Assembly: GCF_054482595.1 (NCBI RefSeq)
Contig: NZ_CM137008.1
Direction: 5' to 3' (one strand)
DNA: 64,000 nt
Shown: positions 5,331 to 57,487 of the stretch, piece after piece
Numbering within the stretch: position 1 is the stretch's first letter
Layout of the letters: the number at the start of each line of letters is the position of its first letter
Position numbers and translations under genes: made by a program
Notes under the pieces: model-generated
The model's input: only the letters and a program-made list of their open reading frames with translations
Database searches by the model: none
Told to the model about the DNA's origin: nothing

Positions 5331-5346
5331 TGTGAGTGATTTCACA
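5331..5346 (+). promoter_or_regulatory. Perfect CRP consensus site (TGTGA-gtgatt-TCACA) in galS-mglB intergenic region
   Basis: Exact consensus palindrome read directly; mgl is a known CRP-activated operon, but the site lies ~250 nt upstream of mglB ATG so promoter assignment is uncertain. Confidence 0.45.
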
Positions 5347-40141: not shown

Positions 40142-40151
40142 GCATCTTTCC

Positions 40152-41240
40152 TCACGGCAGGCGGTGGCGGGCTTGATAATAAGCCTGCCAGTGAGCTTCT
40201 TTATGTGTGGCGACACGCTGTTCGAAGTAACGGCGCAGACGAGCGCGATCTTCTTCGTTATCTTTGACGATGGTTCCGGCAATGCAGTCCACCAGATCGG
40301 CTGGCTCACCTGCGCGATTCGCTAAAAACCAGGCGCGGACGCCCACGGCGTGGGCCACGTTCACGGCTTCAGCGGTGGACATAATCGCTGTTAGTGTATC
40401 CATTGACGTTTTCTTTTCGCCGTTGGCACGCAGATCGCGGAAGGTGCGGACCAGTAACTCCAGTACCGCGTCAGGCACTTTATGCGGAATACCGCTATGG
40501 GCCAGCAAACGCGCCGAAGCACTGGCGACAAGCTCCAGCTCCTGGGCGAAATCCATAATCGGAAAGACAGTTTCAAAATCGAAGCGACGCTTTAGCGCAG
40601 CACTCATTTCATTGACGCCGCGATCGCGGGTATTGGCAGTGGCAATAATATTAAAGCCTTCTCGCGCATAGAGCTGACTGGCTTCACCAGTGAGTTCCGG
40701 CACCGTCATCACCCTGTCAGAAAGCATACCTAACAGACAGTCTTGCACTTCCAGCGGTGTACGCGTTATCTCTTCAAAACGGACGATTTTGCCGTCGCGC
40801 ATTCCCTGGTAAAGCGGGGCAGGGACCAGCGCTTCCGTTGATGGACCATGATTGATAAGCAGGGCGTAGTTCCAGCCGTACTTGATTTGATCTTCGGTAG
40901 TAGATGCGCCGCCCTGGATGGTTAACCCGGCATCGCCGCTAATAGCGGTTACCAGTAATTCAGACAGGAGAGATTTTGCGGTGCCAGGTTCCCCCACCAA
41001 CATCAAACCGCGTCCGGTGGCAAGAGTGACTAACATACGTTCGACAGCGGAGGGACTAATCACCACTTTACGGCTAATATTTTGCGCGCTATCGCCAAGG
41101 ATAAAAGCACGGGCCGCAGGCAAACTTAACTGCCAACCGGGCGGGCAAGGTGCGTTATCATTTTGTTTTAATTTTGCCAGTTCATCGGCGTATAACACAG
41201 CAGCAGGCGGACGCTGCAGATGATTATTCTGCGGTGACAT
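40152..41240 (-). CDS. yehL: MoxR-like AAA+ ATPase
   Basis: ATG at 41240 (MSPQNNHLQRPP…, 362 aa); Walker A GEPGTAKS, sensor-1-like ATANT read directly. Confidence 0.85.
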   Translation of the reverse strand: MSPQNNHLQRPPAAVLYADELAKLKQNDNAPCPPGWQLSLPAARAFILGDSAQNISRKVVISPSAVERMLVTLATGRGLMLVGEPGTAKSLLSELLVTAISGDAGLTIQGGASTTEDQIKYGWNYALLINHGPSTEALVPAPLYQGMRDGKIVRFEEITRTPLEVQDCLLGMLSDRVMTVPELTGEASQLYAREGFNIIATANTRDRGVNEMSAALKRRFDFETVFPIMDFAQELELVASASARLLAHSGIPHKVPDAVLELLVRTFRDLRANGEKKTSMDTLTAIMSTAEAVNVAHAVGVRAWFLANRAGEPADLVDCIAGTIVKDNEEDRARLRRYFEQRVATHKEAHWQAYYQARHRLP

Positions 41241-41351
41241 ATATTCATCCCTGAAATGTATTAATGAAATAAACGATATTTTACGCGCAATAAATGTTTG
41301 GCTCATTAGTTGTTTGAGCGAAAAATATCTGGAAAGCAGATCACAGTAAAT

Positions 41352-41434
41352 AAAAAAACCTGCTGGTGAGGCAGGTTCTTTTATTTACTATTTTCAGGCC
41401 TAACACCACAGCCTGTGCAACATCGTGTTCCAAC
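41352..41434 (-). ncRNA. orzO: Antisense sRNA antitoxin of the first zor toxin copy (OrzO/OrzP type)
   Basis: Minus-strand sigma70 promoter (-35 TTGCAA 41469..41464, 17-nt spacer, -10 TATAAT 41446..41441); terminator hairpin cctgctggtgaggcagg (41359-41375) followed by U7 on minus strand; 5' 19 nt complementary to the toxin leader. O versus P copy assignment is from memory and uncertain. Confidence 0.55.
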
Positions 41435-41440
41435 GAACGA

Positions 41441-41491
41441 ATTATAACCACGGCTGGACCCCGTTGCAATTAAGATAATGAGATTTATAAT
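41441..41491. promoter_or_regulatory. Back-to-back divergent promoters of sRNA and toxin mRNA sharing one palindromic -35 hexamer
   Basis: Plus strand: -35 TTGCAA 41464-41469, 16-nt spacer, -10 TATAAT 41486-41491; minus strand uses the same TTGCAA with -10 TATAAT at 41446..41441. Confidence 0.5.
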
Positions 41492-41672
41492 CCAGACCGT
41501 TGGGACGTTGCGCCGGATCGAACCTATTTCAAGTCCTGGCTACCGGACGGGTGGTGCTTCAGGTGGTGCCCTGAGCCGGAGTGCAACATCGTGGTCCAAC
41601 ATACGTAAACCAGTATTGACAGGCAGTGTAAGGGTAAGGTGCTGGTGTTGCGCTCCTTAATAAGGAGAGCGG

Positions 41673-41762
41673 ATGGACTCGCTGACACAAAAGTTAACCG
41701 TGCTCATTGCTGTACTGGAGCTATTAGTAGCTCTGTTACGGTTGATTGATTTGTTGAAGTAA
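41673..41762 (+). CDS. zorO: Type I toxin, 29 aa (MDSLTQKLTVLIAVLELLVALLRLIDLLK), ZorO/ZorP family
   Basis: Not in ORF track; AAGGAG Shine-Dalgarno 5 nt upstream; ~175-nt leader from predicted TSS; sequence recognised as Zor toxin. Which copy is zorO and which zorP is not certain. Confidence 0.8.
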   Translation: MDSLTQKLTVLIAVLELLVALLRLIDLLK

Positions 41763-41784
41763 CGGGCAAATTGAAACGCATCTA

Positions 41785-41812
41785 AGGGGGAAAACCGCTT
41801 CCCCCTTTAATA
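41785..41812 (+). terminator. Rho-independent terminator of first zor toxin gene
   Basis: gggggaaaaccgcttccccc hairpin followed by TTTAATAAAAT. Confidence 0.6.
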
Positions 41813-41961
41813 AAATGATTACTGTTTTTATTAATTCATCATATAACTCATTTTTATTTATAAATTCATCGATTTTATATTCAACGCACCATTTGACCGG
41901 GATGTGAATATTTATGGTGGGCTATTGGCAAAAAATATCTGGAAAGTAGATCGCAGAAAAT

Positions 41962-42042
41962 AAAAAAACCTGCTGGTGAGGCAGGTTCTTTTATTTACTA
42001 CAGTGACGCTAACTTGCTGATTGTGCAACATTTCGTACCAAC
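41962..42042 (-). ncRNA. orzP: Antisense sRNA antitoxin of the second zor toxin copy
   Basis: Same architecture as copy 1: -10 TATAAT at 42054..42049, -35 TTGCAA 42076..42071, terminator hairpin 41969-41985 with U-run; 5' 18 nt complementary to cognate leader (42190-42207). Confidence 0.55.
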
Positions 42043-42048
42043 GAATAA

Positions 42049-42099
42049 ATTATAACCATATCCACACTCCATTGCAATTCAGTGAGTGAGATTTATAAT
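42049..42099. promoter_or_regulatory. Second copy of the divergent sRNA/toxin promoter pair with shared palindromic -35
   Basis: TTGCAA 42071-42076 flanked by TATAAT on plus strand (42094-42099) and on minus strand (42054..42049). Confidence 0.5.
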
Positions 42100-42280
42100 C
42101 CTGCCCGTTGGGAGGTTGTGCCGGATCGGACCAATTTTAAGTCCTGGCTGCCGGACGGGTGGTGCCGCAGGCGGTGCCCTGATCCGGAGAGCAACGTTTC
42201 GTACCAACATACGTAAACCAGTATCGACAGGCAGTGTAAGGGTAAGGTGCTGGTGTTGCGCTCCTTAATAAGGAGAGCGG

Positions 42281-42370
42281 ATGGACACGCTGACACAAAA
42301 GTTAACCGTGCTCATTGCCGTACTGGAGTTATTAGTGGCTCTGTTACGGTTGATTGATTTGTTGAAGTAA
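42281..42370 (+). CDS. zorP: Type I toxin, 29 aa (MDTLTQKLTVLIAVLELLVALLRLIDLLK), ZorO/ZorP family
   Basis: Not in ORF track; second tandem copy 608 bp downstream of the first; differs by Ser3Thr; AAGGAG SD present. Confidence 0.8.
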   Translation: MDTLTQKLTVLIAVLELLVALLRLIDLLK

Positions 42371-42393
42371 CGGGCAAATTGAAACGCATCTAA

Positions 42394-42418
42394 GGGGGAA
42401 TACCGTTCCCCCCTTTAA
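42394..42418 (+). terminator. Rho-independent terminator of second zor toxin gene
   Basis: gggggaataccgttcccccc hairpin followed by TTTAAG. Confidence 0.55.
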
Positions 42419-42479
42419 GAAAGCTATACTCGTCATACTTCAAGTTGCATGTGCTGCGACTTTAATTATCTAGAGTATA

Positions 42480-42797
42480 TTATTCTATTTCTTGGTTGAA
42501 TATATTCTGTAGTTTACGATTAAAAATTGCTATTACAGTTTCAGGTGATTCACCTCGTAATTTCCGCTCATCAATACACTCATCTCTTATATAAATCAAC
42601 GCATCATTTATTAGCGGGTCAGCATCTTCTCGATCACGTTGATGAAATGTTGAACGTAGCCGGAATCGCTCCAGTCGATAGACGGAACCTGTAAATAATT
42701 CAGAGCATTTATGGATCTCAAGTCTGAAGGAAAACGGATCTTCAGGTACAGGGACCTCATAATCGTAAATAGCAACCAGCTCTTTTTGCACGATCAT
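42480..42797 (-). CDS. yehK: Small protein of unknown function
   Basis: 105-aa ORF 61 nt downstream of yehI on the same strand; recognised as YehK. Confidence 0.75.
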   Translation of the reverse strand: MIVQKELVAIYDYEVPVPEDPFSFRLEIHKCSELFTGSVYRLERFRLRSTFHQRDREDADPLINDALIYIRDECIDERKLRGESPETVIAIFNRKLQNIFNQEIE

Positions 42798-42858
42798 CGC
42801 TTTCCCCGCTGGTAAGTCGTGTTGATAACGGGCAGTTGCATCAATGCCCGCTGTGTTT

Positions 42859-45800
42859 TTAATGGAAAATGACGTCAGGTGCGCTTAACGCCTCACTCAA
42901 ATTAAACACATCAAGTTCGGCAAAAGTGACGGATTTATTGTCACGGTACACTCGAAGAGAACGGAAGCTCATTAACGCTTTGCTATCAACATTGTAGTGG
43001 TTAAAACCGGGTGAAAACTTAAGGACCAGCCGGTACTCGCCCAGGTCATAGACAAATGCATCCTCATAGCCTGACTCCCAGCCTTTGTATCGCATTCCCA
43101 TAAGCTGCCCAACGGTAGCGGATTTACCTTCCCAGCGAGTCAGGCTGTTACTGGTTGACTCGTCAGGTGTGAGCAGCACCGTGCGCCGCGCCAACTGGCG
43201 AAAAGGCGGCATAATTTCGTAATCGGCAAAAAGCTGTGCAAATTCACTGCGCATTTCTACTGTCATTTCTAACGGGTGGGCAATGCCAATCAGAGCGTCC
43301 GCAGGCAGGTCAATTGGCTCATCTTGCGCATTGCAGAACTCCCCCTCTGCGGCCACACGAAAGGCGTTGAGTAAACAACGCGGTTCATTTGCCGGATAAG
43401 CCCCCCATATTAATCGCTGGGTAACCAGACGGGTAAAGGGATGATTAACAAACAGAGAATGAAAATCTGCCAGCGACCAGCGTCGGGTGGTACGTAGGGC
43501 CGTTTCAAGACGCGGGAGCAGGTTTTTGCTCACCTGAGTAGCATCTTTTTTTAGCCCTTTTAGTCGGGCCAGTGCCTCGGGCGCTTTCAGTTGATCGTCA
43601 TCGGCACGCAACCGGGGAACACTTTTCTGGCGAACGTTTTGTTGATCAAAGATAACCGGGTTGAGGTTTTCATCGAAGCGAACGGTAAACTGCCGGGGAC
43701 CAAAATCAAAAATCAACGCCTGCGGATCATCAAGACCTAGTGTTGGGACTAATCTGTCCGCTAACTCTTCCTGGCTTAGCCCGCGATTTTCTGCGACCAC
43801 CTGAAGAAATTCCGCTGCGTTTTCACGTAATGAAGAGGATTTCGCCCGTTGTGATACATGATGCAGCTGTATCAGCGCCATATCATTATTCATCAAGGTA
43901 AGTATATTCAGACCAATGACAGCACGGGCAGATTTGCCTTCTTGTGGCCAGGCGAGGATCTGTGTCGTCAGATCCCGAGCCGTGCTTTCGTCACCAAAGA
44001 GACTTAACGCCAGAAATGCCCAGTTGTCTTTTGCGGGGGCACCAGCTTGTTGCCACGCAGTGAAGAGATCCCAGGCAAAAGCGGCCAGCGTTTGTGGCTG
44101 GCAAAACGTTTTCAGTTGTTCCAGACCGCTATAAAAACGTCCGCCCTGGGTAAAGCGCAGCATTTCGCCGATAATTTCCAGAGCGTCATCGGTAACAGGC
44201 TGATTATTAGTGATAAGTCGCGGCCTGGACCACATTGCCGGATGCCAGAAATCAGGGGCTTTTGGAATGCGTGCCGGGTAAATGTCCATTGGACCCTGTT
44301 TCAGTAAATGCTCCAGGGCAGGCCATACATCTGTACGCTGCCAGCGGTTTGCCACGGTTTGCAGCAATTCACCATGTCCCTGTTCGTAAAGTAAACGCAG
44401 GGCAAGTAATGCAGCTTCGCTATTATCGCTGGATTTGGTGAAGACAAGAGGGATAAGTGCAGTAGCCGTATGTTCCGGCCAATGTAAAATCCACTGGCGA
44501 GCCAGATCACGCTGCACCGCGAAACGTCGCCAGACGCGGGCAACGGGCAGGGCCAGTTCTGTTGCGCCAAAATTTAAAATTAACGGAAATGTTTCTTTTG
44601 GACGATGTAAAAAAGCCAACATCAGACCTGGTAGCGCATCCAACCCGAGGATACTGAGAAAATAGTCCTCACCCGCGAACAGATGTTTTTTCTCATTGAT
44701 ACGCAGCCAGAAGGTCAAAGCCATCTCACGCGGCAACTGTGCCAATAAATACAGGTTCCAGACACTCTTTTCCGGACGATAACGTGAGTAGTTGTCATTT
44801 TCCCATATGTTAATTAACGCTTCTATGTGACCGCTGCGGAGCGCCTGTTCTGCTAATTGTGCTTCCGGGGAGTTCCAGCCATTCAGGATCTCTTCAACCC
44901 GCCCCTGGTAGTAATGCCACTGAACAATGAGTGAATTGCGTGCAGCATCCAGTTTTCCGGGGAGTATATAATTCAGAAACAGCCATACATCATCCCCAAA
45001 ACCCAGTTCCTGTAATACAACTCGCCCACTTTTTTGTTCCATGCGTTCCGCAAGAGATTCCGTGCTGAAATAACGGGCAGACTCAGTGGAGGCAAGCCAC
45101 TCTTGTTCGCCTGGTTGCCAGTAAACTTGCGGGGTTAATTCGAGCGGTGCCAAATCAAGACGTGGAGCTGTCATTTTTTTCTTACTACGCCACGGTGGTG
45201 AAACGAGGATTTCAGGCAGATTGCTGTTATCGGTGCCATCAATAACCGGTTTGGGCGGTGCCAATAAATAACTATTCAGTACTGCCCGGGCTTGAGTACT
45301 TAACCACTGCATCACCTCTTCTGCCAGTTGTGGCTGCGATGCCATCAGCGTTTGTAACAGCGTACGCCAGTATTCATCGCGTGCTTTTTGCTGGGCAGGC
45401 AGCTTTTTGTCTTCGATGATTGGATAACCAAGGCGGGCTGGTGGTTCTTTTAACGCCAGCAGTTCTGCCAGTGCCGCGAGCGTCGCGTGGGGGAAGTTTT
45501 TACTGTATTTAGCCACACGTTGCAGGCTGGGTTTGTTTTTATCAGCCACCAGTAGCAAGGTGTGGATGACCTGCGGATGGTTAATTTGTACCAACAGACT
45601 GCCGCAATCTTCTTTATGGGCATACATCGCGAGGCGCGGAATGGCTGCCAGTCCTTGTTCGCGCAAAAGGGCGGCGCAGGCCGCGTAGCCGAAGTGGTTT
45701 TTTTGTGACATGTAGCTGGCTTCGCGATCGCTAAATACGTCCAGGCCCCAGTATCGTTCGAGTTTTTTTACCGCCGTATTATCAGTAGCAACGACCTTTA

Positions 45801-46491
45801 ACCACTCCTTTGAATGGAGACTTGACCGGGAGCTTTCAAGACTGGCGAGTTCATTGGCTATTTCAGGCTTTTCCGGGAGGATCAGCGCAATAAAAGGACG
45901 GCGAATTTTGGGTATTCCTGGCAGTGCGGCAATGAGTTTATCGGCACAACGCTGCCAGCAACTTTCCTCTGCCAGCGACAGATGCTTACGCAAACGGAGA
46001 TCGAAATCGTTATAGGTCGCGGAGCCATAACCGTAGCCATAGTCCTCGTCCTGATACTGCAAAGTGACGACCAGTGAATCACTCTCATAACGCCGCGCAA
46101 TGCACTGACGCGCCATCACTACATCCGTCGCATATTCCAGCCCCTCTTGTTGGACGATTTCGTCGAGCAACTGTTGGCTGTCATTTTGCGCGATACAGGC
46201 TAGCGCCGCCATTGTCCGGGCCGGGATTGAGGGTTTGTGTTCGCCGATCAAGTTGATGGCCTGCGTGATGGCGGACTGCCACTCCAGTGAAAAATTTTCA
46301 TAACGCCAGACAATGTTTTTTTTCTTCTCAGCTTTTTGTAGCAATTCATCACCCAGTGTCTGAATGATGCTTTCAGTGATAACAGGCACTGGTTCGCCCG
46401 GCCAATTGCGATGGCTGAGTGGTGTTTTACCCTTTTTATATTTCAGTTCCAGTTGGGCGTTATCAGCCAGCCACGGTAATTCCTTGTCCAT
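42859..46491 (-). CDS. yehI: Giant DUF4132-family protein (1210 aa), paralog of MolR without the N-terminal WGR domain
   Basis: C-terminal ~450 aa strongly similar to the two upstream paralogs (e.g. AWDLFTAW…GAPAK…NWAF; LADYE…PPFRQL); recognised as YehI. Confidence 0.9.
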   Translation of the reverse strand: MDKELPWLADNAQLELKYKKGKTPLSHRNWPGEPVPVITESIIQTLGDELLQKAEKKKNIVWRYENFSLEWQSAITQAINLIGEHKPSIPARTMAALACIAQNDSQQLLDEIVQQEGLEYATDVVMARQCIARRYESDSLVVTLQYQDEDYGYGYGSATYNDFDLRLRKHLSLAEESCWQRCADKLIAALPGIPKIRRPFIALILPEKPEIANELASLESSRSSLHSKEWLKVVATDNTAVKKLERYWGLDVFSDREASYMSQKNHFGYAACAALLREQGLAAIPRLAMYAHKEDCGSLLVQINHPQVIHTLLLVADKNKPSLQRVAKYSKNFPHATLAALAELLALKEPPARLGYPIIEDKKLPAQQKARDEYWRTLLQTLMASQPQLAEEVMQWLSTQARAVLNSYLLAPPKPVIDGTDNSNLPEILVSPPWRSKKKMTAPRLDLAPLELTPQVYWQPGEQEWLASTESARYFSTESLAERMEQKSGRVVLQELGFGDDVWLFLNYILPGKLDAARNSLIVQWHYYQGRVEEILNGWNSPEAQLAEQALRSGHIEALINIWENDNYSRYRPEKSVWNLYLLAQLPREMALTFWLRINEKKHLFAGEDYFLSILGLDALPGLMLAFLHRPKETFPLILNFGATELALPVARVWRRFAVQRDLARQWILHWPEHTATALIPLVFTKSSDNSEAALLALRLLYEQGHGELLQTVANRWQRTDVWPALEHLLKQGPMDIYPARIPKAPDFWHPAMWSRPRLITNNQPVTDDALEIIGEMLRFTQGGRFYSGLEQLKTFCQPQTLAAFAWDLFTAWQQAGAPAKDNWAFLALSLFGDESTARDLTTQILAWPQEGKSARAVIGLNILTLMNNDMALIQLHHVSQRAKSSSLRENAAEFLQVVAENRGLSQEELADRLVPTLGLDDPQALIFDFGPRQFTVRFDENLNPVIFDQQNVRQKSVPRLRADDDQLKAPEALARLKGLKKDATQVSKNLLPRLETALRTTRRWSLADFHSLFVNHPFTRLVTQRLIWGAYPANEPRCLLNAFRVAAEGEFCNAQDEPIDLPADALIGIAHPLEMTVEMRSEFAQLFADYEIMPPFRQLARRTVLLTPDESTSNSLTRWEGKSATVGQLMGMRYKGWESGYEDAFVYDLGEYRLVLKFSPGFNHYNVDSKALMSFRSLRVYRDNKSVTFAELDVFNLSEALSAPDVIFH

Positions 46492-46500
46492 GCTCTTTCC

Positions 46501-49500
46501 TTATTCAAACAGGGCTTCAATATCGTTAATTAGCTCGCTGGCGGTGATGGCATCGAGTACGGAGAGCTGCGCTTCCTGTGTTGAATTACTCCCCCAGCCA
46601 TAGCTTTCCGCTTTGCCTTCCCATAGCCACTGCTTGCTTAAGAGTTGCTCGGCACTCAGTTCGGCTGGCGACATGCCTACCGCAAAGCCTTCATCGATTT
46701 CCATGATTAACGACCAGCGGCCCAGAGGTTTGATCATCCAGCCGATCCAGCCTCCATCCTGTGGTTCGCCCTTTATCCAGCCTTTATTCGCCAGCCCCAT
46801 TACCCGACCGCTCGGGCATTTTCTGCCTGCCCAGCGGGTCAGTTCGCTGGCATTGCGCTCGGTTTCTGTCAGGGCGTAACTGTTACGGTCGAGCTGGCGG
46901 AACGGCGGTAGCAGTTCGTAGTCGGCAAAAAGCTGCCCAAATGCGGCGGCATCCGTCGGTGATATTTCCAGAACGTGAGGAATACCAACAGAGATATCGC
47001 CTTCCGGCAGGGTGAAAAGATCATCGTCAGCGGTGCTGTAGCTGTTATCTTCCGCTACCCGGAAACAGGCCAGTAGCTGGTTTTCGGCGCTATAAACGCC
47101 CCAAATCAGACGGCGGGTTAAGTGGCGAACTAGCGGATGCTCAACCAGGAAGAGCTGAAAGTTATCCGGTGACCAGCGGCGACGCAGGCACATGGCGGAT
47201 TCCAGCCTTGCTACCTGCTGGGCGGCGACGGTACGCGCATCTTTTTTCAGCAGTTTGTAGCGGTTAACAGCATCGTTCGCCTGTGATTCATCATCGCTTT
47301 TGTTTGGTTTGGGCAGGTCTTTCAGACGGCTGCCAGAAACATCACGCACAAACGGTTTTAAGGTTTCATCAAAGCTGACGGTGAACTGGCGTGAGCCGAA
47401 ATCCAGCAGCAACGAACCGTTATCATCCAGACCGAGATCCGGTGCTAACCGATCTTCAAGCTCTGCCACCGTGAGTTCGCGGCTTTCGGCAATGTCGGCA
47501 ATTTTTTCTTTTGCCCGCTCCTGTAATGCTTTGAATTTCAGTTTCTGGGCAATACCGTTAAGCTGCATCAGGGCGATATCACTACCGATAGCGGCGAGAA
47601 TATCCAACCCAACGGTGGCGCGTTTATGCTGGGATTCACCAGGCCAGGCGCGTATTAATGGCGTCAGTTTGCGGGCGGTGTCATCGTTACCAAGAACGCC
47701 TAACGCAGTGAACGCCCAACTCTCTTTCGACGGTGCGCCCGCAGTCAGCCAGGCGGTAAACAGATCCCAGGCAAATTCAGCCAGTGAGTCGGCGGTACAG
47801 GCATCTTTCACCTGCAATAATCCCGGATACAGGGCCTCTTCCTGAGGGAAGCGGAGCATTTCACCGAGGTGCTGGAGTGCGCTATCTGGCAGTGATTGGG
47901 CGTTTGTATTTAATACCGGGCGCGTCCAGAGCGATGGCTGATAAAAGGCCGGAAGAGTGGGGATTTTTGTCGGGTGATTATCTAAGGGATCGAGCGCAAG
48001 CAGAGCGTTCACCGCGTCGGTTACTTCCGGCTGGTTATAACGCCGGGCGATTTCTTGCAGTAATGGCTGATGACCGTTTTCGGTAAGCATACGTAAGGCA
48101 GCGCGAGCGTTATCTTGTGCTTCACCGGCTTTGCCGAGCGCCGAAGGCAGCAGGCCGGTTATGGCGTGTTCCGGGTATTTTAGCAGCCAGCTACGGGCGT
48201 CTTGTCGTAGGGTTTTGAGTTTGTTGAAGGCGCGGGCAATGAATGGAGCCAATTCGACAGCCGCGAAATATTGTGCCACGGGAAGAGCTTCCTGCGGATA
48301 GCGAGATGCTGAGTGGATAAAACCTGTTAAACCAGCAAGTCGAAGATGCAACATTACTTGTTTTTCACCTGTATGTGGTTCTTTACTAAGGATATTCCAC
48401 ATCTCAATAGCTTTATTTATGGGTAAAACATGGAGTGAAGAAAGCTTCCATTCGCCCTGATAAGGGGCGTTATAGGACTTAAAAGCATCGATCAAAGTTA
48501 AATAATCTTCACGCTGCCAAGCATCCAACGCTATTTCTGGAATATCAATATAGCCTCTATGTTTGTTCCAATCCCAGCGGTCGAATCCCAGGGAATTCAG
48601 AAAACCTTTTTCTCCCTCTGCTTGCTGACGAGGTTGCCAATTATGCTGCACTTGTAGTCTTTTGCTTTTTGTTTCATTTATTGTACAGAAAGATTCCAGG
48701 GGTAATGGTGCTAAATCCAGCACTGGAGTCGGCGATTTTTTCTTTTTAGCCTGCCACGGCGGTGAGACTAATACGGCAGGCAGCATATCGGCGTTCGCAT
48801 AAACTGAAGGTTGTGTCAGTTGTTGCTGGCATGACTTAAGAACGGTAACTGTCGGGGCAGATAGCCAGGAGATCACCCGTTCTACTAATGTTGGTTGTGA
48901 GATAAGCATCGTCATTAGCATCATGCGCCAGCGCTTTTCATCTTTTTGTGCCAGAAGTTCTGCTAATGCCGCCAGCGCTGCATGTGGAAAGCGAACGAAA
49001 GCCTTTGTCATGCGATCGTGGCAACGCTTTCCCTGCTCACTTGCATGGATAAGTAGTGTAAGTGCTTGCGGGTGGTTGATATGCATCAACACTTCCCCAC
49101 ATGTGTCACCAGCAGCGTAAGGGGCAAAACGGGCCAACGCAGCGACACCTTGCTCCTTGAGTACTGTCGCACACCAGATTTTACCGCCGTAATAATCATC
49201 AAATACCTGCCCTGGCTGTCCTGGATAGTATTTCCCCAGTTCTGCCAATACCTGCTCGTCGGTGGTCGTCAGTTTTAGCCATTCCAGCGCATATACCCCT
49301 TTTTGTCCGCAAAGATGTCTGGCAATCTCATGAGCTACTTCTGGTTTTTCCGGCAACAATAGTGCGACCAGCGGCTGGTTCCAGGCGGGCATGTTTCCGA
49401 GAGCGGCAATCAGTTTGTCGGCGCAGCGCTGCCATACATCGTCATTTGCAAGTGAGAGATGCTTACGCAGGCGCATTTCAACCGAAGCGAAGCGTGACAG

Positions 49501-50259
49501 ATAGTCAGGCTGCTTGTTATCCGGGGTAAAAGTAATGAGGTGGGCATCATAATTCCAGTCAAATCGGATGAATTGCAATGCGATGACAACCTCAGTGGCA
49601 TATTCCAGACCACCTTCCTGGACAATTTGATCCATTAACTCTTCGTGATCGTTACGATTGAAGCCTTGCTCCAGCGCAACCAGTACCGCCAGAACCATCG
49701 GTAGTAGTGTGGTGCTAATCGGCGAGTCGATAAGGCCCACTGCTTGTGTAATCGCCTGCTGCCAGTCCAGTGAACAGGTGCTGTAATCGAAGGTGATCAC
49801 CTTTTTAAAACGCCGGTGAGTATTCGCGGAGACGGAGCGTAGCAGGGTTAATTCATTCTCCTTTGGCACAGGATCGCCAGGCCAGCGTCGATGACTTAGT
49901 GTGGTTGGCGCAACCTCTGTCGGTAAAATGATTTGGGCGTCGTCTGCCAGCCAGGGGAGGTGGTCTCCAGTCAATGCTGGTTTGTCTTGTGGCAAAGGGG
50001 CTATTTCAGGGCATTCGATAACCTGGGTGGGTACAGATGTCGGTGTCATCACGGATACTTCTTCTACGTAGCCCTTTTTTGTTTTCTCCGCAATCAGCTT
50101 CAGTTCCGCTTTTTCCGCCGCCGCAGCATCTGCAAAGCTTTTTACCTGACTTTGCCCGTTAGTGCCGACTTTACCCCAGGTTATATGCAGCTCGTTTCTC
50201 TGCTGCTCCACCGCCCAGAATTTATGTGATTTTTCGTCCTGATAAATATAGGTTTTCAT
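46501..50259 (-). CDS. molR: MolR-like giant protein (1252 aa): N-terminal WGR domain + C-terminal DUF4132
   Basis: N-terminus MKTYIYQDEKSHKFWAVEQQRNELHITWGKVGTNGQ… is a WGR domain; intact reading frame; 9 nt upstream of yehI. Which of the two copies corresponds to K-12 molR/yehH is unresolved. Confidence 0.85.
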   Translation of the reverse strand: MKTYIYQDEKSHKFWAVEQQRNELHITWGKVGTNGQSQVKSFADAAAAEKAELKLIAEKTKKGYVEEVSVMTPTSVPTQVIECPEIAPLPQDKPALTGDHLPWLADDAQIILPTEVAPTTLSHRRWPGDPVPKENELTLLRSVSANTHRRFKKVITFDYSTCSLDWQQAITQAVGLIDSPISTTLLPMVLAVLVALEQGFNRNDHEELMDQIVQEGGLEYATEVVIALQFIRFDWNYDAHLITFTPDNKQPDYLSRFASVEMRLRKHLSLANDDVWQRCADKLIAALGNMPAWNQPLVALLLPEKPEVAHEIARHLCGQKGVYALEWLKLTTTDEQVLAELGKYYPGQPGQVFDDYYGGKIWCATVLKEQGVAALARFAPYAAGDTCGEVLMHINHPQALTLLIHASEQGKRCHDRMTKAFVRFPHAALAALAELLAQKDEKRWRMMLMTMLISQPTLVERVISWLSAPTVTVLKSCQQQLTQPSVYANADMLPAVLVSPPWQAKKKKSPTPVLDLAPLPLESFCTINETKSKRLQVQHNWQPRQQAEGEKGFLNSLGFDRWDWNKHRGYIDIPEIALDAWQREDYLTLIDAFKSYNAPYQGEWKLSSLHVLPINKAIEMWNILSKEPHTGEKQVMLHLRLAGLTGFIHSASRYPQEALPVAQYFAAVELAPFIARAFNKLKTLRQDARSWLLKYPEHAITGLLPSALGKAGEAQDNARAALRMLTENGHQPLLQEIARRYNQPEVTDAVNALLALDPLDNHPTKIPTLPAFYQPSLWTRPVLNTNAQSLPDSALQHLGEMLRFPQEEALYPGLLQVKDACTADSLAEFAWDLFTAWLTAGAPSKESWAFTALGVLGNDDTARKLTPLIRAWPGESQHKRATVGLDILAAIGSDIALMQLNGIAQKLKFKALQERAKEKIADIAESRELTVAELEDRLAPDLGLDDNGSLLLDFGSRQFTVSFDETLKPFVRDVSGSRLKDLPKPNKSDDESQANDAVNRYKLLKKDARTVAAQQVARLESAMCLRRRWSPDNFQLFLVEHPLVRHLTRRLIWGVYSAENQLLACFRVAEDNSYSTADDDLFTLPEGDISVGIPHVLEISPTDAAAFGQLFADYELLPPFRQLDRNSYALTETERNASELTRWAGRKCPSGRVMGLANKGWIKGEPQDGGWIGWMIKPLGRWSLIMEIDEGFAVGMSPAELSAEQLLSKQWLWEGKAESYGWGSNSTQEAQLSVLDAITASELINDIEALFE

Positions 50260-50271
50260 TGTTAAATCCTT

Positions 50272-53200
50272 TTAATCAAACAGTGATTCAATGTCGTTAA
50301 TCAGCTCGCTGGCGGTGATGTCGTCGAGCATGGAGAAAGTGGGTGAGGATTGTTTACCATAGCGATCATAAGGGGCGGTGATTTTTACGCTTTCGACAGG
50401 CAGCAGGTCGCTATACCCCGTTTCGCCATAAATTAATGAAAAAGGTTCTGTTTCAAGTTCGAGAGCACCATAAGGGGTAGATTTGCGCATCGCATAGACG
50501 CTGCCGCTTTCTTCCAGACGTTGCCAGCCTCTGCGTTCCAGCCCGACAATGCGTCCGGCCTGGCAGAGACGTCCGTTCCAGCGTGACAATTCATGGACAT
50601 TACGTTCGTTATCAGCAAGGTGGTAACTACCACGTTCGAGCTGTTGGAAAGGGGGAAGCAGTTCGTAATCAACGTAAATTTGCCTGAATGCAGCGGCGGA
50701 TTCAGGGGGGATTTCCAGCACATGCGGTATACCGATGTTTCCTGCTGGCAGCGTGAATAACTCATCCTGCGCATCGCTGTAAGTGCTGTCTTCTGCCACG
50801 CGAAAACAGGTGATAAGAGCGTTTTCATCGTTATAAACCCCCCATAACAGCCGTCGGGTTAAGTGACGTACCAGCGGATGCTCCACCAGAAACAGGCGGA
50901 ACTGCTCTGCCGTCCAGCGTCTGCGCTGGCACATAGCCTGTTCCAGACGGGTAATTTGCTGGCTGGCGATAGCACGAACATCTTTTTTCAACTGTTTGAA
51001 GAGATTAACTGCGTCAGTTGCCAGTGTTTTATCATCGCTCTGGTTTGGCTTAGGTAAATCTTTCAGGACTTTGCCGTTTGCATCGCACACTACAGGTTTT
51101 AAGGTTTCGTCAAAACCAACGGTGAATTTGCGGGGGCCGAAATCCAGTATCAGCGAGCCACTGCTATCAAGCCCTAAATCCGGTGCCAGGCGATCTTCCA
51201 GTTCGGCCATTGTCAGTCCGCGATTTTCGGCGACCATATTGATTCTGTCGCTGGCATTTTCCTGTAATGCAACGAATTTAATCTTTTGCGCAATGCCATT
51301 AAGCAACATAAGCGCAATGTCGCTACCGATACTGGCTAACACATCCAGCCCGTAAACCGCGCGTTTATGCTGGGATTCACCCGGCCAGGCGCGGATGAGC
51401 GGGGTTAGTTTACGCGCGGTGTCGTCATTGCCTAGAATCCCCAGCGAGGTAAATGCCCAGTTCTCTTTTGCGGGTGCGCCTGCTTCTGTCCATGCCGTGT
51501 AGAGATCCCAGCCAAAGTCAGCCAGTGATTCGCGGGTGAAGGTCTCTTTGATGATCGCCAGCCCAGCGTAGGAGGTAATGTCGCGTGGAAAGCTCAACAT
51601 TGTGCCGAGGTGGCGCATAGCGTCATCTGGCAGAGGCAGGTTGTTACTTTTAAGCCGAGGTCTGCGCCATAAGGTGAACTGATAAAAGCCGGGCAGTGGG
51701 GCGATTTTTGCAGGATATTCTTCCAGTGGGGCGCTATCAAATAATGTTGCCAGCGCAGATAAAACATCAGGTTGATTATATCCTTGGGCGATTTCCTCAA
51801 TCGTTTCTCGCTGGTTTAATTTCACTAGCAGGAGGAGTGCCTGGCGGGCATATTCCCGATTTTGGCACGGTTTGCCCAGCGCCAAAGGCAGTAGCCCGGC
51901 GGCGGCATGGCGCGGGTTATTTGCCAGCCAATTAACGGCATCCTTGTAAGCTATTTTTTTCTGTAACCGCTGCGCCATTGGTAAGGCTAGTTCACTGGCT
52001 CCAATAAAAAGGGTGAATATCCACAGGCGTTGATGATCTCGTTGCAAGCAGGTCATAAACGCAGGAATGGCCGTACTACCAAAAACCGCCAGAATCTCTT
52101 TCTCACCTGAATATCGCTCCTCAATGATTATTTGGTTGAGAAATGAAATCGCCTGTTGTCCCGGTAAGTAACAAAGCGCAGATAGATTCCAGCTTTTGTT
52201 GGCATTGTTGTGATATTTCGCAAACTCAGCTTTTAGTGCTGGAAAATCAAAGCGCAACAAGGCATCAACAGCGCTTTGCGGTATATATTTTTTTTCATGT
52301 AAGTCATTTTCGCAATGCAGCCATTCATTAAAACCTAATTGCCAAAGGATTTGTTGTTCTGGTGTAAAAGGAATGAAAGATGTCTCCCAGCTTTCTTTTT
52401 CAATTAGTGGCAGAACGGTAAATAAGGTTTGCTGTGATGCCTGATATTGCGCAATTTCACTGAATCTGGATATGTCAGTATGACTGATTAACTCTGTAAT
52501 TCCTGGTGTGATATCCGTGACGGCAGGAATGGGAAGTACCGGTAAATCAAATACGGGTATGACATTCTTTTTCTTATTTATTACCCACGGTGGAGCGACA
52601 AGCAGCTCCGGCAACATATCCACAGTGGCATATTCACATTCTTCAGCTACTGGCAGCGGACGACATTCAGATAAGATGCCTGCCGCCTTAGCATTAACCC
52701 AGGGAATGACCTCGCATACTAACTCTGGCGTGGCGGTAATCAGTTTGACAAGCGCTTTACGCCACTCATTATTTTCATGTATTGCCAGCAAAGTAGCATA
52801 AGCGGCAATAGCCGCAGCGGGATGTTTTTGGCAGGCTTTGCTTAAGTATTCCAGGTGCTTTTTCTTGCCATTTACACCGAGGATCAGAATTTGAATCGCA
52901 TCCGGGTGATTCGTTTTCCATAGCCATTTGACAAGATCTTCAGCATTGGCGTGTATGTGAGTGAAAAGGTCCGTGTATTTTACGGGATAGTCGACAGGTA
53001 GCTTGAGAAGAATCCGGCTTACACCACGCATTCCATTATTTGCCAGCAACGTAGCCAGATATTTGCGGAAATCATTATATAGCGGTGGGAAACCATATTT
53101 TTCCTGGATGGCCAGGGCAACATCATCGCTTACCATCATACTTAACCAGGTCATCGCCGGAACGTTTTGGTCTGCATAACGTAGCGCCATAGCATTGGCA

Positions 53201-54072
53201 ATATCCGGGCATTCGGGGAGCAGTAACGCCGCAAAAGGTTGCCGTGCTGGGGATAGCGTCGGAATGGCGGCGAGTACTTTATCTACACAGCGTTGCCACT
53301 CATCTTCTGAAGCGAGTGAAAGATGATGACATAGACGTTGATGCCAACTCGGCAGCGATTCTGCTTTGTGATTAGGTGGAATGATGGTGGTTACTGCGCC
53401 TTTTACTGGTTTATATCTAAGTTGAAGAGCGAGAAGGGCAATTTCAACGGCACTTTCCAGACCACAGCGAATGACTAAGTCATCGACCAGTTCATCTGCA
53501 GAGTAAGAGTTCCAGAAACTCCAGAGCAATGCTGCATCAGATTGTGCACTCCCTGTCTGTTGATTACCCTGAACTCGCATTTGTAACTCAGCAAAAGCCT
53601 GCTGCCAGTTTTCTGGATAAGAACGGTAATTGTTGGCGGGATCATATGCCCTGGTGTTATTCGCGATGAGCTGCCATATTTGACCATCTTTGTGCAGATA
53701 ATTGATCTCTCTGGGGCGAGAGCGATGAGGAAAAGCAAATCGATTAATATCGTCAGTTAGCCGAATGACCGCATCATCAGCCAGCCAGGGGCGTTGGTTT
53801 TTACTCTCAGGGGAAGTTTCAACTTCAGGAGTGGCTTTGGTAATGGGGGGGATATGCACGTTTGCTGAAGCATTTTCCACATAGCCTTTTTTCGTTTTCT
53901 CTGCGATCAGCTTAAGCTCCGCTTTTGCCGCTGCCGCAGCATCCGCAAAACTTTTTATCTGGCTTTGCCCGTTAGTGCCGACTTTGCCCCAGTTGATATG
54001 CAGCTCGTTTCCCTGCTGCTCAACCGCCCAGAATTTATGTGATTTTTCGTCCTGATAGATAAAGTGTCTCAT
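50272..54072 (-). CDS. Second MolR-like giant protein (1266 aa): N-terminal WGR domain + C-terminal DUF4132
   Basis: N-terminus MRHFIYQDEKSHKFWAVEQQGNELHINWGKVGTNGQ… nearly identical to downstream paralog; 12 nt upstream of it. Confidence 0.85.
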   Translation of the reverse strand: MRHFIYQDEKSHKFWAVEQQGNELHINWGKVGTNGQSQIKSFADAAAAAKAELKLIAEKTKKGYVENASANVHIPPITKATPEVETSPESKNQRPWLADDAVIRLTDDINRFAFPHRSRPREINYLHKDGQIWQLIANNTRAYDPANNYRSYPENWQQAFAELQMRVQGNQQTGSAQSDAALLWSFWNSYSADELVDDLVIRCGLESAVEIALLALQLRYKPVKGAVTTIIPPNHKAESLPSWHQRLCHHLSLASEDEWQRCVDKVLAAIPTLSPARQPFAALLLPECPDIANAMALRYADQNVPAMTWLSMMVSDDVALAIQEKYGFPPLYNDFRKYLATLLANNGMRGVSRILLKLPVDYPVKYTDLFTHIHANAEDLVKWLWKTNHPDAIQILILGVNGKKKHLEYLSKACQKHPAAAIAAYATLLAIHENNEWRKALVKLITATPELVCEVIPWVNAKAAGILSECRPLPVAEECEYATVDMLPELLVAPPWVINKKKNVIPVFDLPVLPIPAVTDITPGITELISHTDISRFSEIAQYQASQQTLFTVLPLIEKESWETSFIPFTPEQQILWQLGFNEWLHCENDLHEKKYIPQSAVDALLRFDFPALKAEFAKYHNNANKSWNLSALCYLPGQQAISFLNQIIIEERYSGEKEILAVFGSTAIPAFMTCLQRDHQRLWIFTLFIGASELALPMAQRLQKKIAYKDAVNWLANNPRHAAAGLLPLALGKPCQNREYARQALLLLVKLNQRETIEEIAQGYNQPDVLSALATLFDSAPLEEYPAKIAPLPGFYQFTLWRRPRLKSNNLPLPDDAMRHLGTMLSFPRDITSYAGLAIIKETFTRESLADFGWDLYTAWTEAGAPAKENWAFTSLGILGNDDTARKLTPLIRAWPGESQHKRAVYGLDVLASIGSDIALMLLNGIAQKIKFVALQENASDRINMVAENRGLTMAELEDRLAPDLGLDSSGSLILDFGPRKFTVGFDETLKPVVCDANGKVLKDLPKPNQSDDKTLATDAVNLFKQLKKDVRAIASQQITRLEQAMCQRRRWTAEQFRLFLVEHPLVRHLTRRLLWGVYNDENALITCFRVAEDSTYSDAQDELFTLPAGNIGIPHVLEIPPESAAAFRQIYVDYELLPPFQQLERGSYHLADNERNVHELSRWNGRLCQAGRIVGLERRGWQRLEESGSVYAMRKSTPYGALELETEPFSLIYGETGYSDLLPVESVKITAPYDRYGKQSSPTFSMLDDITASELINDIESLFD

Positions 54073-54172
54073 TCTGCATCCCTGTAATTTTATCCAGTTG
54101 AATGCAGATGCTACCAGTATTTATGCGGGTTAGAGAGAGACAAAATCGTAAGAAAACAACTTTAGGAATTTA

Positions 54173-54201
54173 TAAAGAAAAGGCGCTGTCGATGCAGCGC
54201 C
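54173..54201 (-). terminator. metG terminator (minus strand)
   Basis: ggcgctg-tcgat-cagcgcc hairpin immediately after metG stop, followed on minus strand by TTTTCTTTAT. Confidence 0.55.
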
Positions 54202-54212
54202 TTGAAGGGGGA

Positions 54213-56246
54213 TTATTTCACCTGATGACCCGGTTTAGCACCGGCATCCGGGCTTAGCAGGAAAATATCTTTCCCGCCAGGACCGGCAGCCATCACCATG
54301 CCTTCAGAGATACCGAAGCGCATTTTACGTGGTGCCAAGTTAGCCACCATAATGGTGTGACGACCAATCAGTGCCTGCGGATCCGGGTAAGCAGAACGAA
54401 TGCCGGAGAAGACATTGCGTTTTTCACCGCCGAGATCCAGCGTCAGGCGCAGCAGTTTGTCAGAACCTTCAACAAACTCTGCGTTTTCAATCAGCGCCAC
54501 GCGCAGGTCAACTTTAGCGAAGTCGTCAAAGGTGATGGTTTCCTGAATCGGATCATCTGCCAGTGGGCCAGTAACTGGCGCGGCAGCTGCTTTCACTTCT
54601 TCTTTAGACGCTTCCACCAGTGCTTCAACCTGCTTCATATCGATGCGGTTATACAGCGCTTTGAACGGATTCACTTTGTGGCCCAGCAGCGGTTGCTGGA
54701 TACCATCCCAGGTCAGTTCCGTATTTAGGAATGCTTCTGCGCGCTCGGTCAGTTTCGGCAGTACCGGCTTCAGGTAAGTCATCAGCACGCGGAACAGGTT
54801 TATGCCCATCGAGCAAATTGCCTGCAGGTCAGCATCGCGGCCTTCCTGTTTCGCCACCACCCACGGAGCCTGTTCATCGACATAGCGGTTAGCCAGATCA
54901 GCCAGCGCCATAATTTCGCGCACTGCTTTACCAAATTCGCGGCTTTCCCACGCTTCACCAATCACTTCAGCGGCATCAGTGAAGGTTTTGTACAACTGCG
55001 GGTCAGCCAGTTCGCTTGCCAGCACGCCGTCAAAACGCTTATTAATAAAGCCTGCGTTGCGGGAGGCCAGGTTAACCACTTTGTTCACGATATCGGCATT
55101 CACACGCTGAACGAAATCTTCCAGGTTGAGATCGATATCATCAATGCGCGAAGAGAGTTTCGCAGTGTAGTAGTAACGCAGGCTGTCGGCGTCAAAATGA
55201 TTCAGCCAGGTGCTGGCTTTAATAAAGGTGCCGCGAGACTTGGACATCTTCGCACCGTTCACTGTCACATAGCCGTGAACAAACAAGTTGGTCGGCTTGC
55301 GGAAGTTGCTGCCTTCCAGCATTGCAGGCCAGAACAGGCTGTGGAAGTAAACAATATCTTTACCGATGAAGTGGTACAGCTCGGCGGTGGAGTCTTTCTT
55401 CCAGTATTCATCGAAGCTTACGCTGTCGCCGCGCTTATCGCACAGATTCTTGAAAGAACCCATGTAGCCAATCGGTGCGTCCAGCCAGACGTAGAAATAT
55501 TTGCCCGGCGCGTTCGGAATTTCAAAACCGAAGTACGGTGCGTCGCGGGAGATATCCCACTGTTGCAGGCCAGATTCAAACCACTCCTGCATTTTGTTTG
55601 CCACCTGCTCCTGCAACGCACCGCTGCGGGTCCATGCCTGCAACATTTCGCTGAAAGAGGGCAGATCAAAGAAGAAGTGTTCAGAATCACGCATTACCGG
55701 GGTAGCGCCAGAAACCACCGATTTCGGCTCGATCAGTTCAGTCGGGCTGTAGGTCGCGCCGCAGACTTCGCAGTTATCGCCGTATTGATCCGGGGATTTA
55801 CATTTCGGGCAGGTGCCTTTCACAAAACGGTCCGGCAGGAACATGCCTTTTTCCGGATCGTACAGCTGAGAGATGGTGCGGTTTTTAATAAAACCGTTTT
55901 CTTTCAAGCGAGTATAGATAAGCTCAGACAACTGGCGGTTCTCTTCGCTGTGCGTCGAGTGATAGTTGTCATAGCTGATGTTAAAGCCTGCGAAATCAGT
56001 CTGATGCTCCTGACTCATTTCGCCAATCATCTGCTCCGGGGTGATACCAAGCTGCTGAGCTTTCAGCATGATCGGTGTACCGTGGGCATCGTCGGCGCAG
56101 ATGAAGTTGACCTCGTGGCCGCGCATTCGCTGGTAACGGACCCAGACATCAGCCTGGATGTGCTCCAGCATATGGCCGAGGTGGATTGAGCCGTTAGCGT
56201 ACGGCAGTGCGCACGTCACCAGAATTTTCTTCGCGACTTGAGTCAT
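54213..56246 (-). CDS. metG: Methionyl-tRNA synthetase
   Basis: ATG at 56246 gives 677-aa [29 protein letters not shown]… with HIGH-type and KMSKS motifs; track ORF starts 3 codons upstream. Confidence 0.95.
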
Positions 56247-56377
56247 AGTAGGCATTACTTCTTAATAGTGAAAAGGGGTTAGATAGTACCAAATGGGAAA
56301 ATGTTAAGTAAGTACTTCTCTATATTCTTCAGGTAAACTATCAGCTGATGGTTTATCTATACAAAAAAGGAGTCGGG

Positions 56378-57487
56378 ATGAACGAACAATCCCAGGCCAA
56401 ATCACCAGAAGCCTTGCGCGCAATGGTCGCCGGGACACTGGCCAATTTTCAGCACCCAACCCTGAAGCATAACCTCACTACGCTGAAAGCGTTGCACCAT
56501 GTCGCCTGGATGGACGACACGTTGCATGTGGAACTGGTTATGCCATTCGTCTGGCATAGCGCGTTTGAAGAGTTAAAAGAGCAATGTAGCGCCGAACTGC
56601 TGCGTATCACCGGGGCGAAAGCTATCGACTGGAAACTGTCGCACAATATCGCCACCTTAAAACGCGTGAAGAATCAGCCGGGTATTAATGGCGTGAAGAA
56701 CATCATTGCGGTCAGTTCCGGTAAAGGCGGCGTGGGTAAATCCTCCACGGCGGTAAACCTGGCGCTGGCACTGGCGGCGGAAGGGGCGAAAGTCGGCATT
56801 CTGGACGCCGATATCTACGGCCCATCAATTCCCACCATGCTGGGCGCAGAAAATCAGCGTCCAACTTCGCCGGACGGTACCCATATGGCACCGATTATGT
56901 CTCATGGCCTGGCAACCAATTCAATTGGTTATCTGGTCACTGACGACAATGCGATGGTGTGGCGTGGACCGATGGCGAGCAAGGCGTTAATGCAGATGTT
57001 GCAGGAAACCTTGTGGCCGGATCTCGACTATCTGGTGCTTGATATGCCGCCAGGCACCGGTGACATTCAATTGACGCTGGCGCAAAACATTCCAGTAACT
57101 GGTGCAGTCGTGGTCACCACCCCGCAGGACATCGCGTTGATCGATGCGAAAAAAGGCATTGTGATGTTCGAGAAAGTCGAGGTTCCGGTGCTCGGTATTG
57201 TCGAGAACATGAGTGTGCATATTTGCAGTAACTGTGGTCACCATGAACCGATTTTCGGTACCGGTGGTGCAGAGAAACTGGCTGAAAAATACCATACACA
57301 GCTGCTGGGGCAGATGCCGTTACACATCTCCTTACGTGAGGATCTCGATAAAGGCACGCCAACGGTTATCAGCCGTCCGGAGAGCGAATTTACCGCTATC
57401 TACCGCCAGCTGGCTGACCGCGTTGCAGCTCAGCTCTACTGGCAGGGTGAAGTCATTCCAGGCGAGATTTCCTTCCGCGCGGTCTAA
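56378..57487 (+). CDS. apbC: Fe-S cluster carrier ATPase ApbC/Mrp
   Basis: ATG at 56378 gives 369-aa protein with deviant Walker A SGKGGVGKSS and CxxC motif (CSNCGH). Confidence 0.9.
   Translation: MNEQSQAKSPEALRAMVAGTLANFQHPTLKHNLTTLKALHHVAWMDDTLHVELVMPFVWHSAFEELKEQCSAELLRITGAKAIDWKLSHNIATLKRVKNQPGINGVKNIIAVSSGKGGVGKSSTAVNLALALAAEGAKVGILDADIYGPSIPTMLGAENQRPTSPDGTHMAPIMSHGLATNSIGYLVTDDNAMVWRGPMASKALMQMLQETLWPDLDYLVLDMPPGTGDIQLTLAQNIPVTGAVVVTTPQDIALIDAKKGIVMFEKVEVPVLGIVENMSVHICSNCGHHEPIFGTGGAEKLAEKYHTQLLGQMPLHISLREDLDKGTPTVISRPESEFTAIYRQLADRVAAQLYWQGEVIPGEISFRAV

Follow-up and report, generated by a model that had tools for sequence, protein, structure and literature searches.

Two tandem genes beside metG in Escherichia coli share repeated ends, and recombination at these repeats would account for a structural polymorphism that includes the K-12 pseudogene molR/yehH. 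The window, a 64,000-nucleotide (nt) stretch of contig NZ_CM137008.1 (RefSeq assembly GCF_054482595.1), carries both genes intact between metG and yehI; each encodes a WGR and a DUF4132 domain, and we call the metG-proximal one gene A and the second one gene B. The reading that we favor, at a probability of roughly 80%, is that A, B, and yehI form an ancestral array, that gene conversion has kept the 5′ ends of A and B alike, and that the repeated ends have given rise to two types of deletion, each leaving an in-frame hybrid gene. The K-12 pseudogene would accordingly be a chimera of two ancestral genes that was inactivated later, and not the product of simple decay.

The One-Copy Allele and Its Frequency

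Genes A and B begin and end alike. The sequence-only reading of the window had described their first ~200 nt (50050-50259 and 53870-54072) as ~90% identical repeats lying 3.8 kb apart in the same orientation, and their last ~20 codons as conserved. A repeat search and a direct count bear this out: 175/199 positions are identical in the 5′ repeat (88%), in which the strings quoted earlier are present, and 56/65 positions are identical in the 3′ tail (86%), where both peptides, ITASELINDIEALFE and ITASELINDIESLFD, were confirmed in the two genes (Table 1). The two copies of the 5′ repeat are direct, and their starts are 3813 nt apart, that is 3 x 1271 and hence in frame; the tail copies are spaced 3771 nt apart. 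Exact blocks of 35 nt and 23 nt lie inside the 5′ repeat, and the repeat search found no inverted repeats. Over their full length, A and B share 56% nucleotide and 47% amino-acid identity in a codon alignment. The first 50 codons reach 89% and 86%, respectively, and the next-best 50-codon window reaches 73%. Third-codon positions follow the same pattern, with 84% identity in the first 50 codons vs. about 40% gene-wide (binomial P = 2e-10).

At the K-12-type locus (L001), which agrees with MG1655 and BW2952 at 100% over the junction, only one gene separates metG from yehI; it is annotated as frameshifted and as carrying an internal stop, in keeping with the single fragmented molR that the sequence-only reading had supposed for K-12. 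Different parts of this gene resemble different parents. Its metG flank and first 198 nt are contiguous and match A at 97% vs. B at 83%, while its 3′ half is about 94% identical to B (46501-48354). The middle matches neither A nor B of the window strain, and corresponds instead to type iii of the first of two hypervariable segments (HV1 and HV2) known from B alleles. Two-copy genomes can also carry HV1 type iii in their B gene, among them TCM3e1 (97% identity), EC28 (89%), and E. whittamii (87%), and the K-12 gene is 97% identical to the TCM3e1 B in HV1 and HV2. The K-12 allele thus derives from a B gene of HV1 type iii, not of type i as in the window. In a tree of the C-terminal region, the one-copy genes sit in the B clade.

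Diagnostic positions place the switch from A to B inside the 5′ repeat. All one-copy alleles examined (10/10) have A-type bases at gene nt 7, 8, 11, and 15 and B-type bases at nt 168, 186, 199, and 204. Within the K-12 gene, nt 16-160 are 97-98% identical to the A allele L006_A, and nt 160-198 are 100% identical to the B allele L008_B vs. 74-76% to any A. The one-copy gene is thus an in-frame chimera that joins the promoter and 5′ end of A to the body of B. A crossover between the two 5′ repeats would produce such a gene, fusing the A promoter and the first 15 or more nt of A to B with the loss of one 3.8-kb unit in frame. The earlier reading held that a K-12 interval running colinearly along both copies would speak against any role for the repeats; the interval does not do so, and its A-to-B switch lies in the repeated segment.

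The same reading had named the repeats as a likely route to the K-12 molR. This stands for the chimera, which has the predicted structure, and for the direction of the event, a deletion; it does not stand for the fragmentation, which is independent of the deletion because most sampled one-copy alleles (E06, Nissle, and others) are intact. The frameshift and stop of K-12 probably arose after the deletion. The L001 gene also carries a T-to-A change at nt 43 (T43A) that puts Arg in place of the conserved WGR-domain Trp in HKFWAV (W15R); this change is unique among the alleles examined and is further decay beyond the frameshift and stop.

Among 5426 complete E. coli genomes, the K-12-type junction (metG, WGR, and HV1 type iii) is present in 3656, and the body of A, at 86-100% identity, in 1643. 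A survey of strains of this kind had been proposed from the window alone, and it reveals a common structural polymorphism beside metG, with one copy in about 67% of E. coli and two copies in about 30%. The two-copy genomes include 689 with a type i B and 401 with a type iii B, and the remaining roughly 127/5426 genomes include loci disrupted by insertion sequences (IS) and transposons. Two A bodies, the reciprocal product of the deletion, occur in 0/5426 genomes. We found no earlier description of this polymorphism in the literature within reach of our search, where it is mentioned only in a study of BglJ-RcsB-activated promoters (PMC3950696) and in a study of a transposon insertion in ST131 (PMC9334617). 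The mechanism is known and ordinary; its occurrence at this locus is newly described.

All detected one-copy junctions are of HV1 type iii, and the one-copy alleles sampled differ by at least 5% from the two-copy type iii genomes in the sample. For these reasons we consider the 5′ event old and probably single; it would have taken place on an HV1 type iii B background and been followed by spread and by reshuffling through recombination between strains.

Several observations weigh against this account. Single-crossover reconstructions from the two-copy L007, TCM3e1, and E. whittamii sequences leave at least 41/897 nt mismatched, and no parent haplotype for the common one-copy allele was found among the sampled two-copy type iii genomes. 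At least five core haplotypes occur among one-copy alleles, with apparent switches at nt 15-68, 129-140, and 159-167, and this variety could have arisen either through several deletions or through later exchange between alleles; recombination tracts between alleles that stop within the WGR core can explain it. The window haplotype itself provides no example: an in-silico 5′ deletion product (the type i B gene preceded by the flank and the first 99 nt of A) was covered to at least 80% in 0/5426 genomes, so there is no evidence that the window's own pair ever deleted. With a longest exact match of 35 nt, and of 18 nt in the tail, the window repeats are a weak present-day substrate. The single gene of Klebsiella grimontii, which is B-like from about nt 130 and at codon 3, is no clear A/B chimera. 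The conversion statistics given below come from six A and six B E. coli sequences plus a few outgroups, and not from a full population sample. Finally, most of the 3′ tail likeness is probably owed to protein constraint, since conservation of the tail motif SE[LM][IL][NS]DI[ED]xLF[DE] extends to Erwinia and, in K. oxytoca, the two tails are only 70% identical.

An alternative is that the repeats act as a hot, recurrent switch, so that the many one-copy genomes represent many independent deletions. The distinct 5′ core haplotypes and switch points among one-copy alleles are in line with this, as is the existence of a second, tail-mediated deletion type (below). However, type i B genes and others are common among two-copy genomes, and yet none of the 3656 detected junctions is of a type other than iii and type i deletion products number 0/5426. 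The tail product was likewise recovered only once (1/5426) despite a parent haplotype represented at ≥99% in 549 records, no genome has two A bodies, and the divergence of one-copy alleles from sampled two-copy parents, noted above, is again at odds with frequent renewal. We therefore regard a hot switch as quite unlikely. Both deletion types are rare, although a few independent deletions are possible beside a single origin. Nor is the locus a programmed or high-frequency switch of the phase-variation or shufflon-like kind, because it has no inverted repeats, no recombinase gene (no dedicated recombinase is annotated between apbC and yehM), and no frequent switching.

Ancestral Order and Conversion of the 5′ Ends

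That the one-copy event was a deletion follows from the two-copy arrangement being ancestral. The A-B-yehI trio occurs both in K. oxytoca and K. spallanzanii and in three Escherichia species other than E. coli (E. whittamii, Escherichia sp. E1V33, and Escherichia sp. MOD1-EC7003), and the A genes are orthologous. A neighbor-joining tree of the C-terminal 480 amino acids separates an A clade, in which the K. oxytoca A is included, from a B clade; this tree sorts by gene across genera, and the A/B duplication therefore predates the Escherichia-Klebsiella split. Gene order and tree together show metG-A-B-yehI to be the ancestral order and A and B to be ancient tandem paralogs.

The opposite polarity would make the single gene ancestral and A a later duplication or horizontal insertion, with the repeats as its scar. 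One copy is indeed what most E. coli have, a lone gene occupies or adjoins the locus in Erwinia and Intestinirhabdus, and K. grimontii has one copy plus yehI. We find this polarity very unlikely, however, given that the grouping of the K. oxytoca A with the Escherichia A genes makes A and B older than the genus split. In addition, the one-copy genes nest in the B clade beside the two-copy E. coli B genes, at 91-100% identity, and not where a preduplication gene would fall, and in the neighbor-joining tree the Erwinia genes are also inside the B clade.

Two of these single-gene loci have features of their own. K. grimontii (L015, 10001-17322) has one B-like gene and yehI, vs. the full trio in K. 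oxytoca (L016) and K. spallanzanii, and is an independent loss of A within Klebsiella. Next to metG in Intestinirhabdus alba (L019, 4059-7880) is a single gene in which a WGR N terminus is fused to a YehI-like body and tail; it is 54% identical to YehI and 35-41% identical to A and B. Either the WGR domain was lost from YehI in both Escherichia and Klebsiella, or a larger deletion joined yehI to the WGR domain of the first gene.

Despite the age of the duplication, the 5′ ends of A and B have not diverged accordingly. For this comparison we took both genes from six E. coli genomes with two copies, from E. albertii, E. whittamii, and two other Escherichia species, and from K. oxytoca and K. spallanzanii. 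Across gene nt 16-167, no fixed difference separates the six A from the six B sequences of E. coli, and 11 polymorphisms are shared; for the last 1500 nt the corresponding counts are 361 and 46 (Fisher P = 1e-10 for the contrast). Fixed differences resume on both sides of this core, at nt 7, 8, 11, and 15 and at nt 168, 186, 199, and 204. Within the core (nt 16-165), A and B are 86-93% identical to each other within Escherichia and 83% within K. oxytoca, vs. 76-81% (A) and 76-77% (B) between Escherichia and Klebsiella orthologs. Consistent with this, a neighbor-joining tree of gene nt 16-168 places all Escherichia A and B sequences together, apart from all Klebsiella sequences. This is the classical signature of gene conversion, with a tract of about 150 nt, and the 5′ similarity reflects conversion and not only protein constraint. 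Recurrent nonreciprocal homologous recombination between the copies would keep the first roughly 200 nt alike, with the tract sharply bounded at nt 16-167. The main activity of the 5′ repeat is gene conversion, not deletion. At its 3′ edge (nt 160-205), the repeat of the E. albertii A gene (L017) is B-like, with a T at nt 168 and the peptide EKVKKGY, which suggests a conversion tract reaching further than in E. coli.

Purifying selection alone, acting on the WGR domain and the C-terminal motif, would be another account of the alike ends, with no exchange between copies and a one-copy allele unrelated to the repeats. The WGR domain is a conserved Pfam domain, and the tails, with their motif shared as far as Erwinia and their lack of any sign of homogenization in Klebsiella, fit such constraint. 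For the 5′ repeat, however, it is already contradicted: third-codon positions there are as conserved as the protein (84%), paralogs within a genus are closer than orthologs between genera, the core combines an absence of fixed differences with 11 shared polymorphisms, and the one-copy junction falls exactly inside the repeat. As a full explanation, selection alone is scarcely tenable.

Tail-Mediated Deletion and Mechanism

The conserved tails, already noted in the sequence-only reading, have mediated a separate, recent deletion in one lineage. A synthetic product made of the A body, the B tail, and yehI is matched in exactly 1/5426 genomes, EC190759. Up to nt 3752, the 3801-nt gene of EC190759 differs at one position from the A gene of 20AR0479, a two-copy genome; from nt 3768 onward it is B-type. 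The crossover thus lies inside a 15-nt identical block, CATCACCGCCAGCGA, which is homologous to the region of the window tail block at 50303-50320, and 3774 bp have been lost relative to 20AR0479. The flanks of the two genomes are 100% identical for 3642 nt toward yehI and for 2174 nt toward metG, so that they form an isogenic pair of parent and derivative, and the parent haplotype is found at ≥99% identity in 549 records. A 3′-3′ crossover in the 15-nt tail block would fuse the A body to the last B codons, as seen in the EC190759 lineage. The tails are therefore a real but rarely used deletion substrate, and the EC190759 event is recent. An assembly artefact from a collapsed repeat, for which the single occurrence among 5426 complete genomes might speak, can be almost wholly discounted, as the A and B bodies are too unlike to collapse and have in common only a tail of 65 nt at 86%, the 3801-nt open reading frame is intact with one clean switch, and the exact chimeric protein recurs in the same metG-gene-yehI order on three contigs, including assembly GCA_032304655.1.

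The two deletion types may differ in their enzymology. Exchange between the 5′ repeats is expected to depend on RecA, and the tail deletion could be a RecA-independent slippage at short homology, from a 15-18-nt block. The minimal efficient processing segment for RecBCD/RecA is usually cited as roughly 25 nt; the 35-nt and 23-nt blocks of the 5′ repeat are near the minimal length for this pathway, and a divergence of 12% should invite suppression by mismatch repair. Both properties are consistent with the rarity of the events.

Known systems resemble the locus in part. Abdulkarim and Hughes reportedly described, in 1996, RecA-dependent gene conversion and concerted evolution of tufA and tufB in Salmonella and E. 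coli. As there, paralogs within a genome are closer than orthologs between lineages, exchange is nonreciprocal, and polymorphisms are shared; unlike tufA and tufB, which are distant and inverted, the molR-like copies are adjacent direct repeats, and they are homogenized only over about 150 nt at the 5′ end, with the rest of the 3.8-kb genes at 40-75% identity. Hemoglobin Lepore (a delta-beta fusion) and the red/green opsin arrays are hybrids from unequal crossover of tandem paralogs. They share with the one-copy allele an in-frame chimera with the upstream promoter and 5′ end and the downstream body, the loss of a unit, and a segregating deletion allele. The setting here is instead a bacterial chromosome, the homology is limited to 199 nt at 88% or 65 nt at 86%, and the reciprocal triplicated product is not seen.

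Direct repeats also serve as portable homology for deletion or duplication of intervening DNA among the rhs, rrn, and IS repeats of E. coli, which span kilobases, are nearly identical, and recombine at measurable laboratory frequencies. The molR-like pair is by contrast short, 12% diverged, and, according to the population data, very rarely used. Short direct repeats can also delete without RecA, through slippage or template switching during replication, as Lovett and colleagues have reportedly described; the EC190759 junction, in an exact block of 15 nt and hence below the roughly 25-nt minimum, resembles such events. It differs in that 3.77 kb separate the repeats, a long distance for slippage, and in that the block lies within 65 nt of 86% similarity, so that homeologous RecA recombination could also be responsible. 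With a sharply bounded conversion tract and two in-frame hybrid deletions at short, diverged repeats, the locus is a clean natural example of these processes.

Allelic Diversity, Annotation, and Neighboring Features

Table 1. Features of the metG-yehI region, in window coordinates
Feature	Position	Strand	Description
metG	54213-56255	minus	Flank upstream of gene A
metG-A intergenic region	54073-54212	minus	140 nt; still upstream of the single gene in one-copy strains
Gene A	50272-54072	minus	metG-proximal WGR + DUF4132 gene; intact open reading frame, 1266 amino acids
5′ repeat, A copy	53875-54073	minus	Start codon and WGR-coding segment; from repeat search
Conversion core, A	53906-54057	minus	Gene nt 16-167; longest exact A/B match, 35 nt, at 54023-54057
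3′ tail repeat, A copy	50272-50336	minus	Last 21 codons and stop; 18-nt exact block at 50303-50320
A-B spacer	50260-50271	minus	12 nt, AAGGATTTAACA; contains AAGGA, which reads like a ribosome-binding site
Gene B	46501-50259	minus	Second WGR + DUF4132 gene; intact open reading frame, 1252 amino acids
5′ repeat, B copy	50062-50260	minus	From repeat search and direct count
Conversion core, B	50093-50244	minus	Gene nt 16-167; 35-nt exact block at 50210-50244
Hypervariable N-terminal half of B	48270-50049	minus	HV1 about 49005-50049, HV2 about 48270-48708; semiconserved linker between; flanked by the conserved ends
3′ tail repeat, B copy	46501-46565	minus	18-nt exact block at 46532-46549
yehI	42859-46491	minus	1210 amino acids; third DUF4132 paralog of the tandem array, lacking WGR; downstream of B after a 9-nt spacer

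Gene B also has extreme allelic diversity. We found at least four nonalignable HV1 types, and at least four HV2 types plus an absent state, which assort independently. The types are only 43-62% identical to one another, and several also occur in E. whittamii, Escherichia sp. E1V33, and MOD1-EC7003. In its C-terminal half, B is conserved at 91-100%, save in type iv alleles (about 80-88%). This pattern looks like diversifying or balancing selection with cassette exchange. Gene A is a mosaic as well, though less markedly so: alignment columns of about 900-1200 and 1500-2250 drop to 61-82% identity between two allele groups, vs. mostly 85-99% elsewhere, and in the second variable segment one of these groups also takes in E. 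whittamii and E1V33. Such extreme cross-species allelic diversity in a WGR and DUF4132 family is probably the more interesting lead from this locus.

One possibility, which we hold to be unlikely, is that the conserved WGR start, the linker, and the C-terminal half serve as recombination handles around the HV1 and HV2 cassettes of a diversifying sensor array. Under this idea, A-B-yehI may work beside yehLMPQ, for example in a conflict or defense system, with a repertoire changed by cassette exchange, conversion, and copy loss; yehLMPQ encodes what we take to be a MoxR-type ATPase, a VWA protein, and a SWIM protein. The A/B repeats would then be functionally important and not incidental. PADLOC models gave no family at E ≤ 0.01 for A, B, or YehI.

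In O157:H7 ATCC 35150 (L008, 4199-11006), A, with an internal stop, and B, with a frameshift, are both annotated as pseudogenes. The B gene there, of type iv, is about 800 nt shorter and is without HV2, and Escherichia sp. E1V33 (L012) has the same form.

Annotation pipelines handle the polymorphism badly, to the point that an intact B is called two partial pseudogenes. In the RefSeq/PGAP annotation of E. coli 88COLEC (L004), the strain that the window matches at 100%, gene B appears as one pseudogene "missing N-terminus" and one "missing C-terminus" (4202-6301 and 7580-7960), despite a single intact open reading frame of 1252 amino acids. The likely cause is an HV2 type unlike every other sampled allele (49-62% identity), for which a reference protein may be lacking.

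The genes of the array are closely spaced, with 12 nt between A and B and 9 nt between B and yehI, and B lies in an operon with A, because the 12-nt spacer contains the ribosome-binding-site-like AAGGA. The BglJ-RcsB-activated molR promoter of K-12 has been mapped within the metG-A intergenic region (PMC3950696). Pfam scans of shortened A and B protein sequences identified WGR at residues 6-69 and DUF4132 at residues 1000-1183 of A (E-values 1e-18 and 2e-50), and both domains in B (1e-17 and 4e-51). This architecture is exactly that of the MolR family (PF05406 and PF13569), to which the K-12 molR/yehH pseudogene and yehI belong, and gene B is the ortholog of the K-12 molR/yehH body. The historical label of molybdate regulator gets no support from the present data. 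Beyond Pfam, the sole NCBIfam match was to the WGR part of a Leptospira family, far under its cut-off, the sole match in a PDB search was the WGR domain of 2ra8, and Rfam had no match in 42000-57000.

Mobile elements also hit the locus frequently. A transposon with blaCTX-M-15 has been reported at it in ST131 (PMC9334617), and IS5 and IS1 insertions occur among H208 (strain 21437), H141, and H249. Two aberrant loci were considered as products of repeat recombination and rejected. The O121 locus (L009) is broken by IS600 and IS421. A partial A match in SY3626 (H70; L010), a candidate for an alternative junction, belongs to an IS1-associated deletion that removes most of A and all of B, yehI, and yehK.

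Two further observations concern the surroundings. PHROG families match the yeh proteins in the window at 34736-54072 (yehQ to gene A), full-length and with scores of several hundred to about 1700 bits; these are likely host genes swept into prophage-derived families and constitute no evidence for a phage origin. Homologs of metG at roughly 90-94% identity are present on about 210-220 plasmid records of the E. coli collection, for example on plasmids of 95-114 kb.

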